Position numbers and translations under genes: made by a program
Part shown: piece by piece, positions 1 to 15,068 of the stretch
Numbering within the stretch: the stretch's first letter is position 1
Layout: every line of letters begins with the position of its first letter
Origin: Deltaproteobacteria bacterium
GTDB lineage: Bacteria; Myxococcota_A; Polyangia; Polyangiales; Houyiibacteriaceae
Direction: 5' to 3'
Length of the DNA: 15,068 nucleotides
Assembly (NCBI GenBank): GCA_034670305.1
Contig: JAXMNT010000090.1
Span: 1-15,068 of the forward strand
Notes under the pieces: model-generated
Seen by the model: the letters and a program-made list of their open reading frames with translations, nothing else
What the model was told of the DNA's origin: nothing
The model's database searches: none

Positions 1-38
1 CGATGCTCGTCGCGCTGATCAAGCGATCTGACCGCTGA
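1..38 (+). CDS. Truncated 3' end of a gene (...MLVALIKRSDR*), possibly a four-helix-bundle (23S rRNA intervening-sequence/bAvd-like) protein
   Basis: ATG CTC GTC GCG CTG ATC AAG CGA TCT GAC CGC TGA at 3-38. Amphipathic helix resembling the '(A/S)MLxxLI' C-terminus I recall for four-helix-bundle proteins; only about 12 residues visible. Confidence 0.4.
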   Translation, partial: MLVALIKRSDR

Positions 39-122
39 TCCGCGGGCAAGGGCAAAGGCAAGGGCAGGGGCAAGGGGCAGGCTGCGAGAACGCCCTGCGG
101 GCGTTCTTCAGCAACCTGCTAG
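1..122. repeat. Left copy of a perfect 122-bp inverted repeat (partner 14946-15067); probable end of a multicopy MITE/IS-like element
   Basis: Bases 1-122 match the reverse complement of 14946-15067 base for base; identity stops after CTAG (119-122). Contains a GGGCAA-type tract (44-80) and a palindrome (78-118). Confidence 0.95.
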
Positions 123-1240
123 ATCAGGATGGTGGGGCAGCCGAAGAGGATGTCGAGTGCGTCGGCCATGCGCGCGCGGTCGCACGCCGCTCCGAAGAGT
201 TCGATCTGCGTCATGTCGTCGGAGTAGTCCCAACCGCTCCCGCGCGCGGGGTCGCGTGGGATGGATTCGTCGCCGCCTTCGATCTGGATCCGCACGTTCA
301 CCTGACCGGGATCGAACGCACCGTCCGGGTTGTCGGGGATCTCGTAGACGCACTCGAGGACGGCTTCGCCGATCGCCGCGAACGCATCGCGGAGCGCGGC
401 GCCGAAGTCGAGGGCCGGGTCGGTGAGATCGTAGTGGCAGTAGGTCGGACCGCTGTCGCTGCACCCGGCCCGCGCGGTGCCCGCGGCGCTGGCGAGTCGA
501 GAGAGCACTGGCCGATAACCAGCGGAACCCGGCACCCCGATCACGAAGGTGGGCACACCGGCGGCCGCGGCGGCGCGCACCCGCTCCACCAGCGCGTCGT
601 TGTCGCGATCCTGTGCACTCGGGTCGTCGAACGCGCAGTCGGTGTCGCAGCCGAAGCAGACCCGCGCGTCGCCATCGGTCGCGAGCACGAGCGCTGGCCG
701 CTCCACGCCACTCAAGCGACCGACGCCGAACGCCACCGCATCGTGGGTGGGCGTCGAGAGACCGTCCGGCACGATCGACCGCGCGGCTGCCACCACGCCC
801 GCGCGCCCATCGCTCAACCGGGTGAAGTCGGAGACGAACTCGTCGCGGGCACAGGCGCCCTCCGCGCGCGGAAAACGCATCAGTCCCACCGAGGACGCAT
901 CGCTGAACGAACCCACCGCGTCGACGAGCGCCGACACGAAGACATCCCAGCGAGAGTCGTCGGGCGCGGGCGTCGGGTCGTCGGTCAAACAACCGAAGTC
1001 GTCCGCGCGGCAGTTCATGCTGTTGCTCGTGTCCATCTGGAAGAGCACCGTTGGCGGCAGCGGCTCGGCCACCGCGCTCACCGTTTCACACACCTCGCCC
1101 GGCACATCGAGCCGCACCACGTCGCGGAACGGTGCATCGATTGCAGACGAATCTGCGGCAGCCCCATCCACCGACGCGTCGATCCGTCGAACGTCCGAAG
1201 CACACCCCACCAAGAGCCCCAACACCAGCCAACGCGCCAT
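119..1240 (-). CDS. von Willebrand factor A (vWA) domain lipoprotein, myxobacterial Cys-rich type
   Basis: ATG at 1240; signal peptide with lipobox MARWLVLGLLVG-C; MIDAS DTSNS after hydrophobic strand TVLFQM; TPT and VLATDG motifs; Cys-rich C-terminus GWDY...IELFGAAC...FGCPT. TAG stop lies in the CTAG at 119-122. Confidence 0.88.
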   Translation of the reverse strand: MARWLVLGLLVGCASDVRRIDASVDGAAADSSAIDAPFRDVVRLDVPGEVCETVSAVAEPLPPTVLFQMDTSNSMNCRADDFGCLTDDPTPAPDDSRWDVFVSALVDAVGSFSDASSVGLMRFPRAEGACARDEFVSDFTRLSDGRAGVVAAARSIVPDGLSTPTHDAVAFGVGRLSGVERPALVLATDGDARVCFGCDTDCAFDDPSAQDRDNDALVERVRAAAAAGVPTFVIGVPGSAGYRPVLSRLASAAGTARAGCSDSGPTYCHYDLTDPALDFGAALRDAFAAIGEAVLECVYEIPDNPDGAFDPGQVNVRIQIEGGDESIPRDPARGSGWDYSDDMTQIELFGAACDRARMADALDILFGCPTILI

Positions 1241-1247
1241 GCCGCGC

Positions 1248-1253
1248 AGCATA
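1248..1253 (-). promoter_or_regulatory. Putative -10 box (TATGCT) of a leaderless transcript for the vWA gene
   Basis: TAnnnT 7 nt upstream of ATG 1240; no Shine-Dalgarno. Confidence 0.55.
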
Positions 1254-1279
1254 CCGCCTGACCCATTCGTGGCCGCCCG

Positions 1280-1398
1280 AGGGCCGCCAGTCGAGCGAAG
1301 CGAGCCAGGCCCGCAGCGAACAAACATTCGACGCGGCGAAGCCGAGCGAAGCGAGCAAGCCGTGTCACCAGGACGGGGTTTGGGGGCCGTGCCCCCAA
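1280..1398. repeat. REP-like intergenic palindromic element
   Basis: 34-nt unit at 1280-1313 is 32/34 identical to 2419-2452; GCGAAGC mini-hairpins at 1295 and 1346, CGGC-GAA-GCCG at 1334-1344, perfect TTGGGGGC-CGT-GCCCCCAA hairpin at 1380-1398. Confidence 0.7.
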
Positions 1399-9533: not shown

Positions 9534-11129
9534 ATGACCAGCGTCCAGACCACCAGCGGCTCGCCGAGCCACATCGACTGTTTCGAACCCGCGACCGGCG
9601 CGCCGCTCGGCCAGGTCCGCGTGACCACCCCCGAAGAGGTGCACCGCGCGATCGACAAAGCCCGGGAAGCCCAAGCGCTCTGGGCCCGCACCACGTTCGA
9701 TGTGCGGCGCTCGGTCCTGCGACAGATCCAGCGCCACGTGCTCGACCACGCGGACGAGCTCTGCGATCTCATCGTTCGGGACGCGGGCAAGACCCGTGAG
9801 AACGCGATGCTCGGCGAGATCTGGCCGGTCTCCGAAAAGATCCGCTGGACGATCCGGCACGGCGAGAAGCACTTGCGGCCCGAGCGGGTCTCGAGCGGGC
9901 TCTTCGTACACAAGAAGGCCACCATCGAATACCACCCGCGCGGCGTGGTCGGCGTCATCTGCCCGTGGAACTACCCGCTGCAAAACATCCTCGGACCGGT
10001 GGTCCCGGCGCTGATGGCCGGCAACGCGTGCGTCGTGAAGGTCAGCGAGCAGGTGGCCTTCAGCGCCGCGCGCTTCGAACGGATCTTCCACGAAGCCTTC
10101 GACCAGCACGGCTTCCCGCACGCGCTCGTCCAGATCGTGCACGGCTACGCGGAGACCGGCGCGGCGGTGGTCAGCGGCGGCAGCGATCTCGTGGTCTTCA
10201 CTGGCTCGATGGCCAACGGCAAGAAGGTCATCGCCGAGAGCGCGAAGTCGATTACGCCGGTCATCCTCGAGCTCGGGGGCAAAGACGCGATGATCGTGTG
10301 CGACGACGCCGACCTCGAGCAAGCCGCCCACGCGGCCCTCGCTGGCAGCTTCATCGCGGCGGGACAGAACTGCCTCGCCGCGGAACGCACCCTCGTGCAC
10401 GCGGGCATCTACGACGCGTTCGTCGCCCGGGTCGCGCACCTCGCGGGACAGATGACGCAAGGCGTGCCGCACGAAGGCCGGCCGGATGTCGGCGCGCTCG
10501 TCGCCGCGCAGCAGGCCGACATCGTCGAACACCTCGTCAACGACGCGCTCGCCAAGGGTGCGCGCGCGCTCGTCGGTGGCGCCCGACCGAAGCGCGCGGG
10601 CAACTGGTTCGAACCCACCGTGCTGGTCGATTGCACGCCCGAGATGTTGATCATGCACGAAGAGACCTTCGGTCCCGTGATGGCCATCTGCCGCGTGCGC
10701 TCCGACGAAGAAGCGATCGAGATCGCCAACGGCACCCAGTACGGGCTCAGCTCCACGGTGCTCAGCAAGGACAAGAAGCGCGCGAAGCGCATCGCCGACG
10801 CGATCGTCACCGGCAGCGCGTCGATCAACGACTACGGCCTGACGTACATGGCGCAGGAGCTGCCCTTCGGCGGGGTCGGCGGATCCGGGTTCGGCCGACT
10901 CAACGGGCGCGAAGGATTGCGTGCGTGCACGAACGTGAAGTCGGTCCTCGAGGATCGCATCGCGCTGCACCAGCCCGCCAAGCTCTTTCCCGTCGGCCCG
11001 CGCGACTACGATGTGGCCCGCGGCGTGATCAAGACGCTCTACGGCCAAGGCGTGCGCGGACGGATCGAAGGTCTGAAGGACCTCGTGCGCACCGCACGCG
11101 GCGTGGTACGTCCCCGCCGCCGTGACTGA
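9534..11129 (+). CDS. NAD(P)-dependent aldehyde dehydrogenase
   Basis: GVICPWNYP, ALMAGNACVVKVSE, FTGS, LELGGKD (catalytic Glu), GQNC (catalytic Cys), EETFGPV, LPFGG. Confidence 0.96.
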   Translation: MTSVQTTSGSPSHIDCFEPATGAPLGQVRVTTPEEVHRAIDKAREAQALWARTTFDVRRSVLRQIQRHVLDHADELCDLIVRDAGKTRENAMLGEIWPVSEKIRWTIRHGEKHLRPERVSSGLFVHKKATIEYHPRGVVGVICPWNYPLQNILGPVVPALMAGNACVVKVSEQVAFSAARFERIFHEAFDQHGFPHALVQIVHGYAETGAAVVSGGSDLVVFTGSMANGKKVIAESAKSITPVILELGGKDAMIVCDDADLEQAAHAALAGSFIAAGQNCLAAERTLVHAGIYDAFVARVAHLAGQMTQGVPHEGRPDVGALVAAQQADIVEHLVNDALAKGARALVGGARPKRAGNWFEPTVLVDCTPEMLIMHEETFGPVMAICRVRSDEEAIEIANGTQYGLSSTVLSKDKKRAKRIADAIVTGSASINDYGLTYMAQELPFGGVGGSGFGRLNGREGLRACTNVKSVLEDRIALHQPAKLFPVGPRDYDVARGVIKTLYGQGVRGRIEGLKDLVRTARGVVRPRRRD

Positions 11130-12744
11130 ACCAAGGACCCACACACCCGCCGACACCTTCGACTACGTCGTGGTCGGCGGCGGCAGCGCGGGCTGCATCC
11201 TCGCGGCCGATCTCTCGAAGGTCGGCACCGTCTGTCTGCTGGAAGCGGGACCGCACGCGAGCCAAGCCCCCGCAACGTTGCGCGCCGATGGCTACAAGGA
11301 CGCGTTCACCGATCCGCGCCTGATGTTCGAACGGTTCGCCAAGAAGGACGCGCGCTGGGGCGACCGGCGGGTCTTTGTGGGCACCGGCCGGGTGCTCGGC
11401 GGCAGCGGTGCTGTGAACGCGATGGTCTACACGCGCGGCGCGGCGGAAGACTTCGACAGCTGGCCCGAAGGCTGGCGTTGGCAAGACGTGCAGCCTGCGT
11501 TCGATGCGGTGGAATCCACGCTGAGGCCGCGGCCACGCGAACTGACCGAATGGACCGAACGCTGCATCGCGTCGGCCGAGCTCGCAGGCATGCGCCGCAG
11601 CCGCAACCTCAACGACGGCGACCTGAGCGGCGTGCTCGGCTACGAGGCGATGAACTACGAAGGCGACGCGCGGCGCTCTTCCTACGTCGGGTTCTTGGCC
11701 CCCGCGCTCGAAGCCCAGATCACGGCGCCCGAAGCGAAGCGCACCCTCCAAGTCGAGACCGGCGCGCTCGTCGATCGCGTCGTGGTGCGCGGCGGCCGAG
11801 CGCGCGGCGTCGCGTACTTCAAGGGCACGACCGAACACGAAGTGTTCGCGCGCCGCGAGGTCGTGCTCTGCGGTGGCGCGCTCGCGACGCCTGCCATCCT
11901 TCAACGCTCCGGCATCGGCGCGGCGAGCGCGCTCCAAGCGCTCGGCATCGACGTCGTACTCGACCAGCCACGCGTCGGCGCGAACCTGCACGACCACCCG
12001 AACGTACAGCTCTTCTTCCGTGGCAAACGCGAGGTCGACTGCGACTACCCGCAGCTCTACGGCTTCGAACACGTGGGCGCTGGTTCCGAGTCCGCACCCG
12101 ACACCTGCTTCGTCTTCTACCCGGCCCGCTCCTCCTTCCGAGAGGGCCTGTTGAAGTTGCTCCCGGGCATCGCGCTGCCCGAGTCGCTCTACGACAACCC
12201 GGTGTTCCCCGCCGCGATCCGCAAGTCGATCGAAGTCGCGTTCGAGCGCGACGCGGTGCGTTCGTTCGTGGAGAAGCTCTGGGGCGTGGTCGTGATCCTC
12301 GGCAAACCGAAGAGCCGCGGCAGCGTGCAGATCACGAGCCGCGATCCGCACGCGATGCCGGACGTGGACCCCGGCTGGTTCGCCGATCCCGCCGACATGG
12401 ACACCGTGCTCGCTGGCGTCGAACGCGCGCGCGACATCGCCGGCCAAGCGCCGCTCGGGTTCTTCGGACAGAAGGAACTCTTGCCCGGCAAACGCGTGAA
12501 ACGCCGCGCCGCGCTCGAGCGGTGGGTCCGCAAGAACGTGATGACGACCTACCACTTCGCTGGCTCGTGCGCCTTCGGCACCCAGGACGACGATGTGCTC
12601 GACCTCGATCTGCGCTTGCGGGGCATCGAGGGCCTTCGAGTCGCCGACGCGAGCGCGATGCCCATCGCGCCGGTCGCCGCGCTCAACGCGCCCACGATGA
12701 TGCTCGCCTACCGCGCCGCCCAGCGCATCGCCGCGGACGCGTAG
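11122..12744 (+). CDS. GMC family FAD-dependent oxidoreductase (choline/alcohol dehydrogenase-like)
   Basis: DYVVVGGGSAG, GRVLGGSGAVNAMVYTRG, ILQRSGIG, VGANLHDH, TTYHFAGSC, LRVADASAMP, NAPT; GTG start overlaps the ALDH end by 8 nt. Confidence 0.95.
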   Translation: MTEPRTHTPADTFDYVVVGGGSAGCILAADLSKVGTVCLLEAGPHASQAPATLRADGYKDAFTDPRLMFERFAKKDARWGDRRVFVGTGRVLGGSGAVNAMVYTRGAAEDFDSWPEGWRWQDVQPAFDAVESTLRPRPRELTEWTERCIASAELAGMRRSRNLNDGDLSGVLGYEAMNYEGDARRSSYVGFLAPALEAQITAPEAKRTLQVETGALVDRVVVRGGRARGVAYFKGTTEHEVFARREVVLCGGALATPAILQRSGIGAASALQALGIDVVLDQPRVGANLHDHPNVQLFFRGKREVDCDYPQLYGFEHVGAGSESAPDTCFVFYPARSSFREGLLKLLPGIALPESLYDNPVFPAAIRKSIEVAFERDAVRSFVEKLWGVVVILGKPKSRGSVQITSRDPHAMPDVDPGWFADPADMDTVLAGVERARDIAGQAPLGFFGQKELLPGKRVKRRAALERWVRKNVMTTYHFAGSCAFGTQDDDVLDLDLRLRGIEGLRVADASAMPIAPVAALNAPTMMLAYRAAQRIAADA

Positions 12745-12748
12745 CCTG

Positions 12749-12948
12749 CTTGCCAGCGCCGAAGGCGCAATCCCCTTGCCCTCGGTGGGGCTTTGCTCGC
12801 TAGGGAGTGTCTTCAAAGGGTCGGGCCGTAGGCCCGGCCTTCGTGCACGTACACGTACACGCACACGTGCACGTACCCGTGTGCGTCCTCGTCCCCTTGC
12901 CAGCGCCAAAGGCGCGATGCCCTTGCCCCGACCCTTGCCTCGGTGGGG
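12749..12948. repeat. Composite intergenic repeat: two direct repeats flanking CTAG, an IS-like end, a hairpin and a hexamer tract
   Basis: CTTGCCAGCGCCGAAGGCGCAATCCCCTTGCCC (12749) vs CTTGCCAGCGCCAAAGGCGCGATGCCCTTGCCC (12896), 30/33 identical, both followed by TCGGTGGGG; CTAG 12800-12803; hairpin 12819-12839; GTGCAC/GTACAC hexamers 12843-12896. Confidence 0.8.
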
Positions 12949-13020
12949 TTGGTTCCCGACATCCGCGCTGTCCCCGAGACCCATCGGACGCGGTGCCTAC
13001 GCAAGGGCGTCGATTCGGAG

Positions 13021-13029
13021 TGCTACGCT
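13021..13029 (+). promoter_or_regulatory. Putative extended -10 box (TGcTACGCT) of a leaderless transcript
   Basis: TGn-TAnnnT 6 nt upstream of ATG 13036; no Shine-Dalgarno. Confidence 0.55.
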
Positions 13030-13035
13030 GGCCGC

Positions 13036-14949
13036 ATGCGCGCTCTTCTTCTCTTCGGTCTGTCTGTCTCTCTGATCGCCTGCGGAGACGACGACTCTGC
13101 CGGAGGCGACGACGCTGGCGGAGGCGAAGACTCGGGCGCCGTCCTCTGCCGCGCCGACGTGGACTGCTCCGACGCGGTCTACTGCAACGGAGTCGAAGTC
13201 TGCGCGCCATCTGCCGCGGGCGCGGACGAGCGCGGCTGCGTGAACCCCGGCGCGCCCTGCACCGAACCGGGCCGCAGCTGCGACGAGCTCGGTCGACGCT
13301 GTTTCACCGAATGCGAAGTCTCCGGCGATGCCGACGGAGACGGAGTGGACTCCGAAGACTGCGGCGGAGGCGATTGCGACGACGGCAACCCGAACCGCTT
13401 CCCAGGCAACGAAGAGGTCTGTGACGAGGCGGGGCTCGACGAGGACTGCGACCCGCGCACGCTCGGCGGTGTGGACGACGACGGCGACGGACACATCGCC
13501 TCCATGTGCTGCAACGGAGAGGTCTGCGGTACCGACTGCGACGACATGAGCGCTGGCACGTTCGTCGGCGCGATCGAAGTCTGCAACGGCCTCGACGACG
13601 ACTGCGACGGCACAATCGACGAAGGCCTTCCGGTAGAGGCCTACCTGCCCGATTGCGACCGCGACAACTTCGGCGCCGACGACGGCGAAGCGGTCATGGG
13701 TTGCTCCGTTCCAGGCGATCCACCAGCGTGTGATCTCGGGGTGTGGGTGGTCGGCACCGGGGACTGCAACGACGGCGACGCCAACATCAACCCAGGCAAC
13801 CCCGAGGTCTGCAACAACGTCGACGACAACTGCGACGACACCGTGGACAACATGGGCGCGGGTGGGGCCTTCGTCTGCGAAGCCGGCGAGGAGATGGCCT
13901 GCACGAACGGTTGCGGCGTCTCCGGCAGAACGCTCTGCATGGGATGCACCGCGTTCGCCGAGTGCACTTCGGACGAGATCTGCAACCACTGCGACGACGA
14001 CAACGACGGCAACTTCAACGAAGAGCGCGAGCTCTCGACGGGGACCGACGCGCCCATCTTGTTCTGCGGGACGCAGGCGGGCGTGGGCGACTGCAGCCCG
14101 GTTTCGGGGGGTTCGGATTCGATGTTGTTCGTCGCGACCGTGCTGGACGGCACGAGCAACGACAGCGCCGGAGCCGTCTGGCTCAACCTCGTGGATGTGG
14201 CTGGCATGGCGGTGGACCCGGCGATGGGCTGGGGAACGATCGAGTTCGACGTCGTGCTCGAAGCGACCGCGGTTCCAAATGGCGAGACCGACGCGGAGTC
14301 TCCGCTCGGCGGGTGGGCAGTGGTGTTCGCGCGGGAAGGCGGCGAGGGGGTCGGGACACCCGAAGATCGGGGCGTTCCACGCGACCTCGTTGGCGGATCG
14401 GTGAACTGGTACTGGTCCTACCTGTACATGGACTCTCCGCCCGGCACCTTCGACCAGACCCGCTACCACTCCCACCGTGGCGTGGGCGGCGGCACGCCCA
14501 TCCGGGCCGATGGAACCGGTCCGAACTGGAACCTCGACGATGGAGAGTTGCTCGCGGGCGGCTCCACCGGGTTCGATGGGCAGACGACAGCAGTCGCCCA
14601 ACACCTTCGCATTCGCTACACACCGGACGATCCGATCACGATCGCGAACGAAGAACGCGTCGAGGTCACCGCTTCCACGGACGGGGGCAACAGGGTCTCT
14701 GTGTATGCCGCCGCGATGCCAGACGGTTCGCCAGACCCGGCCAACGACCTCCCGGTGGGCGCCCCCCTCGTCATCGGATTCACCGCGGGCACGTACACGG
14801 ATTCTGGGTTCACCGGGCCGCCGCCTGGGTTCACCTTCGGCGTACCCGTTCGTGCAACCGTCGAACTGAGCCGAATCCGGACCGACGTCAGTCCTGTGGA
14901 GTACAGCTCGGCCAACGCCTCCCTCACCCGCGGCGGCATCTGCCCCTAG
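13036..14949 (+). CDS. Cys/Asp-repeat (MopE-related putative metal-binding motif) lipoprotein with possible C-terminal L-type lectin-like domain
   Basis: ATG at 13036; lipobox LIA-C; repeated DCDD...PG.xEVC...DxDCD motifs; C-terminal SAGAVW...IEFDV...GGWAVVF pattern reminiscent of L-type lectins. TAG stop lies in the CTAG at 14946-14949. Confidence 0.85.
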   Translation: MRALLLFGLSVSLIACGDDDSAGGDDAGGGEDSGAVLCRADVDCSDAVYCNGVEVCAPSAAGADERGCVNPGAPCTEPGRSCDELGRRCFTECEVSGDADGDGVDSEDCGGGDCDDGNPNRFPGNEEVCDEAGLDEDCDPRTLGGVDDDGDGHIASMCCNGEVCGTDCDDMSAGTFVGAIEVCNGLDDDCDGTIDEGLPVEAYLPDCDRDNFGADDGEAVMGCSVPGDPPACDLGVWVVGTGDCNDGDANINPGNPEVCNNVDDNCDDTVDNMGAGGAFVCEAGEEMACTNGCGVSGRTLCMGCTAFAECTSDEICNHCDDDNDGNFNEERELSTGTDAPILFCGTQAGVGDCSPVSGGSDSMLFVATVLDGTSNDSAGAVWLNLVDVAGMAVDPAMGWGTIEFDVVLEATAVPNGETDAESPLGGWAVVFAREGGEGVGTPEDRGVPRDLVGGSVNWYWSYLYMDSPPGTFDQTRYHSHRGVGGGTPIRADGTGPNWNLDDGELLAGGSTGFDGQTTAVAQHLRIRYTPDDPITIANEERVEVTASTDGGNRVSVYAAAMPDGSPDPANDLPVGAPLVIGFTAGTYTDSGFTGPPPGFTFGVPVRATVELSRIRTDVSPVEYSSANASLTRGGICP

Positions 14950-15067
14950 CAGGTTGCTGAAGAACGCCCGCAGGGCGTTCTCGCAGCCTGCCCCTTGCCC
15001 CTGCCCTTGCCTTTGCCCTTGCCCGCGGATCAGCGGTCAGATCGCTTGATCAGCGCGACGAGCATCG
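14946..15067. repeat. Right copy of the perfect 122-bp inverted repeat (partner 1-122)
   Basis: CTAG, then CAGGTTGCTGAAGAACGCCC-GCA-GGGCGTTCTCGCAGCCTG (14950-14990), then CCCTTG hexamers (14988-15024); exact reverse complement of 1-122. Confidence 0.95.
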
Positions 15068-15068
15068 C
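15030..15068 (-). CDS. Truncated 3' end of a gene (...AMLVALIKRSDR*), identical copy of the stub at 1-38
   Basis: Reverse strand reads GCG ATG CTC GTC GCG CTG ATC AAG CGA TCT GAC CGC TGA. Confidence 0.4.
   Translation of the reverse strand, partial: AMLVALIKRSDR

Follow-up and report, generated by a model that had tools for sequence, protein, structure and literature searches.

The repeat end at positions 1-122 of the window is most probably (about 85%) the transposase-upstream end (IRL) of an IS5 element of the NF033581 type that carries a four-helix-bundle (4HB) gene as passenger. The window is the whole stretch of 15,068 nucleotides that was analysed and represents the entire contig C90 of the assembly G000 (7.93 Mb, 105 contigs, 68% GC), so that both of its ends are assembly breaks at repeat copies. 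Judging by named neighbours, the host is probably a myxobacterium. The full element would be about 1.7 kb long and read TA, TIR with hairpin, hexamer tract, 4HB gene (outward), 72 nt, transposase gene (outward), mirrored tract, hairpin with TIR, and TA. Its own DDE transposase would bind both TIRs and insert the element at TA in CTAG, and about 50 near-identical transposase-bearing copies would have broken the assembly. We infer an intact copy in G000, its activity and a 2-bp duplication.

The features of the two copies in the window are collected in Table 1, together with the related loci in other bacteria. Window positions 1-122 recur inverted and 100% identical at 14946-15067. An ORF tail, hexamers, a palindrome and a CTAG at 119-122 had been described by the sequence-only reading, and all of them lie where it had placed them; its assignment of the tail to the four-helix bundles is borne out by the PF05635/TIGR02436 profile matches, and the tail is not a DDE C-terminus. 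In the window the upstream part of the 4HB gene is cut off by the contig end. Folding of positions 71-122 as DNA gave -17.3 kcal/mol for the plus strand and -18.5 kcal/mol for the minus strand, values equalled by none of 200 shuffles. The TA at 120..121 forms, with the first G of the TIR, the TAG stop of the host ORF 119-1327 (-), and the TA at 14947..14948 likewise completes the TAG stop of the host ORF 12943-14949 (+), both ORFs pointing toward the element. Since the TIR starts with G, the TAG stop survives on both sides, and insertions at gene ends would therefore be mildly harmful and accumulate.

Table 1. Features of the element in the window and loci bearing related elements in other genomes
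Feature	Position or locus	Strand	Remark
4HB passenger gene, 3' tail	1..38, frame 3-38	+	MLVALIKRSDR and stop; 11 last codons and TGA 36-38; runs on into PF05635/TIGR02436 sequence in other copies
GGGCAA-type hexamer tract, about 5-6 units	44..80	+	mirror-image tract inside the other end of the element
Terminal hairpin, imperfect palindrome; outer arm overlaps TIR	78..118	.	folding z -4.7 (+) / -5.2 (-)
IS5 TIR, transposase-upstream side (IRL), starts GCAGG	105..119	-	18/20 bases (including flanking CTA) equal to plain-relative consensus
Target TA within CTAG (119-122), putative duplication	120..121	.	family-level empty site
Second copy, target TA	14947..14948	.	
Second copy, TIR (IRL)	14949..14963	+	
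Second copy, hairpin and hexamer tract	14950..15024	-	
Second copy, 4HB 3' tail	15030..15068	-	
4HB-bearing transposase loci	L023, L024, L025, L026, L103, L104, L105, L183, L186, L201		deleted form L206
G404 IS1380-type copies	L232 (G404:C2:1552745-1554170); L233-L235		transposase internally deleted in all seen

A BLAST search of G000 returned 142 matches of at least 60 nt to the window (right) end and 152 to the partner (left) end, the latter query being taken from an internal copy. Identical copies had been claimed from the letters alone, and 61 of the 72 copies cut by contig ends are indeed 100% identical to the window (rounded). The partner end, in which a matching inverted repeat and CTAG were to be looked for, contains both and follows a mirror plan of CTAG, TIR folded into a hairpin, and hexamer tract. 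The assembly holds 54 paired units of 175-726 nt, all without a whole transposase, and unpaired ends, 74 left and 78 right, stand no more than 700 nt from a contig end, which amounts to 152 of the 210 contig ends at which the assembly breaks because of this repeat. The shortest contig is 2063 nt, and no intact copy, intact transposase ORF or intact 4HB ORF of the element was found in the G000 assembly. Scans of G000 with the Pfam DUF772 and NCBIfam IS5_3 profiles gave no matches because the collapsed element is absent from the assembly, and the scan with NF033581 gave four pieces, all below the cut-off. The assembled copies are deletion derivatives of the parent element, and some of the short ones may be mosaics since no listed read contig spans the stretch deleted in the copy on contig C59. 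Internally deleted copies would move, if at all, in trans for as long as both TIRs last. In most assembled G000 copies the 4HB gene is either lost or interrupted by a nested repeat at a single GATATC site; this site gave 22 matches in assembled copies, of which 6 were scored intact and 16 not, the latter including one 1-nt deletion and one chance match.

Other repeats were noted in the window. Positions 1323-1405 form a small double-hairpin repeat with AT-rich ends (75 matches over 80% of its length); members of this family and of a related one are inserted into the IS5 element at two GATATC sites, frequently as tandem copies, and the same two sites are joined by many deletions of the element. 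Another dispersed repeat, at 1279-1322 and 2371-2465 (81 and 32 matches over 80% of the length), often adjoins other mobile ends. Past the stop of the ORF 11122-12744 lies a degenerate hairpin and hexamer unit (12746-12990; 21 partial matches), which resembles simpler units of CTAG, hairpin and tract.

The consensus end of the plain relatives, compiled from 136 IRL and 125 IRR sequences, is CTAGCAGGCTGCTGAAAAAC, in which the anchor fixes six positions, and of the twelve free ones that follow most are conserved at 80-99%. A TIR with flank was present at 141 of the 152 left and 111 of the 142 right matches in G000. CTA stands just outside the TIR in 123/141 left and 94/111 right termini and GTA in only 7/141 and 3/111, and a GTAG-tagged REP/RAYT unit was rejected on these counts. 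Among 33 valid pairs (one mis-paired row was dropped) TA flanks the element on both sides in 23, and eight of these 23 have a base outside TA that departs from the CTAG pattern, so that a 2-bp TA duplication with the TIR starting at G is favoured over a duplication of 4 bp. No empty paralogous site was found in G000 among the 23 rebuilt sites. For a 54%-identical relative, the filled site in Sinorhizobium meliloti has CTAG twice and the empty site in Rhizobium tropici has it once, a comparison in which duplications of 2 and 4 bp are indistinguishable; RefSeq labels a 54% relative 'IS5-like element ISMch8 family'. Duplications of 2-9 bp are given for the IS5 groups in a passage of PMC3281130. 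On an S. meliloti plasmid (CP140950.1; L238:1122-2644) an IS5 relative is inserted in the anti-phage gene qatC; the passenger ORF that follows its transposase is a different one (114 aa). At 22 of the 23 sites an open frame of 150 codons or more terminates on one or both sides, compared with 811 of 1283 other CTAG sites (p 4e-4), a bias toward stop codons that could result from targeting or from purging. CTAG itself is under-represented in G000, with 1615 occurrences observed and about 5740 expected from 3-mers.

N-terminal, middle and C-terminal pieces of a transposase are found in different G000 copies, on the strand opposite to the 4HB gene and always in the same place and orientation between the two ends. 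A 47-aa piece matches 167 proteins, the best of them 87-90% identical, and the full-length ones among those listed have 340-380 aa with DUF772 and DDE domains. The full-length homologue P0004, 87-89% identical to the G000 piece, scores 270 bits on NF033581 (IS5_4; cut-off 140). Three homologues score 179-191 bits on NF033551 (IS1182), under its cut-off of 270, and the IS1182 family is ruled out. Of the IS5/IS1182-type end that the sequence-only reading had proposed, the IS5 half thus holds, by the match of the TIR to the consensus, and the IS1182 half falls. That reading had also envisaged a non-transposase gene moving in a transposon-ended cassette: the 4HB passenger does lie within IS5 ends, but the unit is not devoid of a transposase, as an IS5 transposase gene that points away from the 4HB gene stands between the ends.

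Read contigs from four sets, all of one study, were aligned to the C59 copy. The transposase pieces were recovered on read contigs of 1043 nt (475 nt in one run) and 269 nt with a depth of 613-795, against 12-19 in the flanks. From this ratio of 45-61 roughly 50 G000 copies carry the transposase, a figure to be read with the origin of the read sets in mind, which are possibly the source of the assembly and in which other strains could add depth. The loose ends of the high-copy contigs continue as transposase (SSMLCLVSPE, SVPPERLLK and CRAAGATPH). The long read contig reaches 337 nt past the piece toward the transposase start; once 54 nt of gene and the 72-nt spacer that separates the divergent start codons of transposase and 4HB are subtracted, this high-copy contig would also include about 70 codons of 4HB, as judged from contig size, 30 letters being shown per loose end. 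The joined layout in G000 is accordingly a probable one, assembled from overlapping pieces and read-contig sizes, and the number of near-identical copies suggests recent transposition activity.

Complete elements of the same plan were found in other bacteria. With P0004 and an alignment as query, the best 80 of 539 genome loci, the best 80 of at least 568 metagenome loci and another 29 found in 400 genomes of the class were taken, giving 189 transposase loci that are the best matches to one query and not a census. Eleven of the 189, mostly in myxobacteria, have a 4HB gene (Table 1); L023 and L024 are the same element, which occupies two different sites in two Polyangiaceae MAGs. The ten with a transposase start share the G000 plan of an upstream, divergent 4HB gene, and mirrored tracts lie inside the TIRs wherever the contig includes the ends. 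Both ends are seen in L023, L024, L103, L104 and L186, at a distance of 1.69-1.84 kb. The 4HB frame is open in 7 of 9 distinct composites and frameshifted in L104 and L105. Of the 147 loci in which the start and a TIR anchor upstream of it are present, 135 are short, plain IS5 without 4HB, 6 are long with 4HB, and 4 long and 2 intermediate ones are without it. The phylum sample had 4HB in 1 of 30 loci, a deleted composite in the two-contig genome G646; this genome contains a series of deleted composites, and the deletion series is therefore real and not only a product of short-read mosaics. Viral contigs gave seven transposase loci, none with 4HB. The IS5 composites need two changes on the transposase tree, and with p-AU 0.33 for a single clade, a single capture of 4HB by IS5 is neither shown nor rejected. 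Matches to 4HB and to transposase agree in source and in the length of the longest contig in P0130/P0008, P0132/P0007, P0177/P0042, P0220/P0101 and P0221/P0071, hinting at further composites.

Overlapping pieces of different G000 copies give a 4HB gene of 117 aa that ends in the tail seen in the window. The copy on contig C14, which has this tail, scores 67.1 bits on PF05635 (cut-off 33.8) and 73.7 bits on TIGR02436 (cut-off 24), and the protein matches 2GSC in phmmer (E 1.3e-11). In all, PF05635 has 47 matches in G000 (e.g. C35:10682-10981, C8:37742-38032 and C26:32822-33106), about 35 of which fall into three further cassette families, multi-copy and without a transposase, that have a structured leader and hexamer runs in the same direction. 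In the relatives purifying selection acts on the passenger as strongly as on the transposase: dN/dS in three close pairs was 0.14, 0.07 and 0.06 for 4HB (113, 83 and 64 codons) and 0.08, 0.14 and 0.15 for the transposase. Three distant pairs, near saturation, gave 0.22, 0.23 and 0.48 for 4HB. A motif AAC-N(13-17)-CGAT is present 5-12 nt upstream of the 4HB start in 12 of the 20 leaders compared, in those of IS-borne as well as solo genes, as against a mean of 0.02 and a maximum of 1 in shuffled leaders, the motif having been picked from the same 20 leaders in which it was counted. ECF sigma factors recognise AAC and CGT boxes according to a passage of PMC8103513, and it is therefore a fair guess that the 4HB transcript is leaderless and stress-induced.

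The same 4HB subfamily also occurs between mirrored tracts without a transposase (L008, L214-L217 and L219-L222), and in a FastTree tree the solo genes do not separate from the IS-borne ones. One of these loci, L216, has 600 nt, retains a single IS5-like end and matches the 4HB half of L104 with 76% identity over 491 nt, as expected of a composite that would have lost its transposase, the reverse order being possible too. In the genome G404, three near-identical units of 1.43-1.46 kb and a shorter one, all of IS1380 type, have different TIRs, CTAG flanks, mirrored GGGAAC tracts, a 4HB gene and, in tandem with it, a deleted IS1380 transposase. This is an independent fusion with the same geometry, the transposase lying inside the tracts. 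Our best guess for the arrangement of transposase inside and TIRs outside the mirrored tracts is that one end was copied onto the other. A strict rule of five units per tract was not supported, since units numbered 3-8 in our own counting. The pattern G3N1-7 (G-quadruplex) fits most tracts of the subfamily, and the window's own tract does not fit it.

Each of the two genes would be transcribed outward and end in a tract and hairpin, which may terminate the element's own transcript and also that of the host gene at whose stop codon the element sits. As to why the 4HB gene is kept, we lean slightly toward an independently expressed hitch-hiker with an ECF-type promoter that benefits the host or its own cassette and uses the IS ends as a vehicle. 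The alternative that fares best makes the 4HB protein a working accessory of transposition, expressed from the stress (ECF) promoter, which would bind the mirrored tracts as DNA or RNA next to the TIRs and tune end pairing or transposase expression. It would account for the position of the tracts, which adjoin both TIRs on their inner side and enclose the transposase, in the IS5 and in the IS1380-type element, and for the tract inside the transposase-side end of 7 of 8 4HB loci and only 1 of 125 others, the sole exception (L124) being cut 129 nt upstream. The selection on 4HB, equal to that on the transposase, agrees with it too, as does the homology of PF05635 to Avd, an accessory of retrohoming, described in a passage of PMC10053308. 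However, the 135 of 147 scored relatives with a short distance from IRL to start and no 4HB mean that this type of IS5 transposase works without it, IS-borne and solo genes are intermixed in the tree, and the two changes on the transposase tree leave a single capture undecided; we regard an accessory role as quite unlikely. Equally doubtful is its extension, in which the Avd-like 4HB would be a general accessory module of DDE transposons: the protein, its stress-sigma promoter and the mirrored tracts would repeatedly fuse with unrelated IS families (IS5, IS1380), an oligomer would bind the tracts by both TIRs and control transposition, and the solo cassettes would be remnants after loss of the transposase. 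A reason for keeping the gene other than hitch-hiking or a role in transposition is unlikely.

A second alternative is that the units are transposase-less MICs or MITEs with IS5 ends and 4HB cargo that a separate plain IS5 would move in trans, and that the pieces of transposase are chance captures or assembly mosaics. Such units would look like the assembled paired copies, all short and without a whole transposase, like the transposase-less cassettes of the same subfamily in relatives, and like L216 with its one IS5-like end. Chance capture is at odds with the constant place and orientation of the pieces between the ends. Moreover, the closest transposase relatives listed (74-78% identical to P0004) are all in complete composites, the composite in G646 shows a like series of deletions, and a plain IS5 of this type was not found in G000, which together make this reading very improbable.

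In G000 a gene that is found on about 13 contigs (C20:45376-45900, C38, C1, C68, C63, C31, C59 and others) resembles, by eye, a tyrosine transposase of the RAYT/IS200 type. GTAG-tagged REPs and RAYTs are described in PMC3733652. A hairpin unit of the REP/REPIN kind, mobilised by a RAYT (HUH) transposase and bearing the IS5 gene as its cargo, would suit these multi-copy RAYT-like genes, the hairpins at both ends with their foot of CTAG or GTAG, and the simpler G000 units of CTAG, hairpin and hexamers that lack the inner half of the TIR, but it is extremely improbable given that the ends match the plain-IS5 consensus at positions outside the anchor, GTA is rare at the termini, the transposase gene is in its normal orientation and keeps its upstream motif, and target duplication is shown for a family member.

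By the TIR and homologue tests, the passenger-carrying element is placed in the IS5 family as a transporter IS (tIS), i.e. an IS with passenger genes, which are usually a resistance, a regulator or a methyltransferase gene. The term is used in a passage of PMC9330008. Like the tIS, the element is one IS with its own transposase and a passenger between a single pair of TIRs, seen whole in L023, L024, L103, L104 and L186, but here the passenger is PF05635, accompanied by a promoter motif and repeat tracts of its own, and these tracts enclose the transposase. With IS5 of the NF033581 kind (transpos_IS5_4) it shares TIRs of the type GCAGG..GCTGAAAAA and the CTAG target, and probably a single DUF772 and DDE transposase of about 350 aa and a short duplication, whereas it differs from a plain IS5 in about 450 nt of extra sequence between IRL and the transposase start with the divergent 4HB gene, in the mirrored hexamer tracts and hairpins inside both ends, and in the burst of about 150 ends of each kind in G000. 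As in the MICs and MITEs of PMC3281130, as far as a passage of that source describes them, the assembled copies are non-autonomous, bounded by TIRs and of many lengths, but the parent element keeps its transposase and the derivatives mostly lose 4HB too. The element shares its PF05635/TIGR02436 gene with the 23S rRNA intervening sequences but is not in rRNA; an intervening sequence was rejected as the window copies abut protein-coding genes and Rfam gave no match in L023, L002 and L004. In contrast to Avd in diversity-generating retroelements (DGR), PF05635 is here carried by a DDE transposon, with no reverse transcriptase or TR/VR within the element. No link to a reverse transcriptase or DGR was found inside the element, and a DGR was rejected because the complete elements of 1.7-1.8 kb have room for two genes only. 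No report of an IS carrying PF05635 was found in the literature searched, to which ISfinder and subscription reviews did not belong, and a catalogued element may exist.

Genes of the PF05635 family are widespread and patchy, with no known function; the family is called uncharacterised in a passage of bioRxiv 2024.02.27.582315. A self-mobile carrier is one concrete route for their spread, in the relatives and most likely in G000. The element offers two genes in one unit, a passenger under selection across lineages, a deletion series that goes down to MITEs, and in L216 something like half an element. Were the 4HB protein found to influence transposition, it would represent a novel type of accessory factor; otherwise the element would be an unusual tIS.
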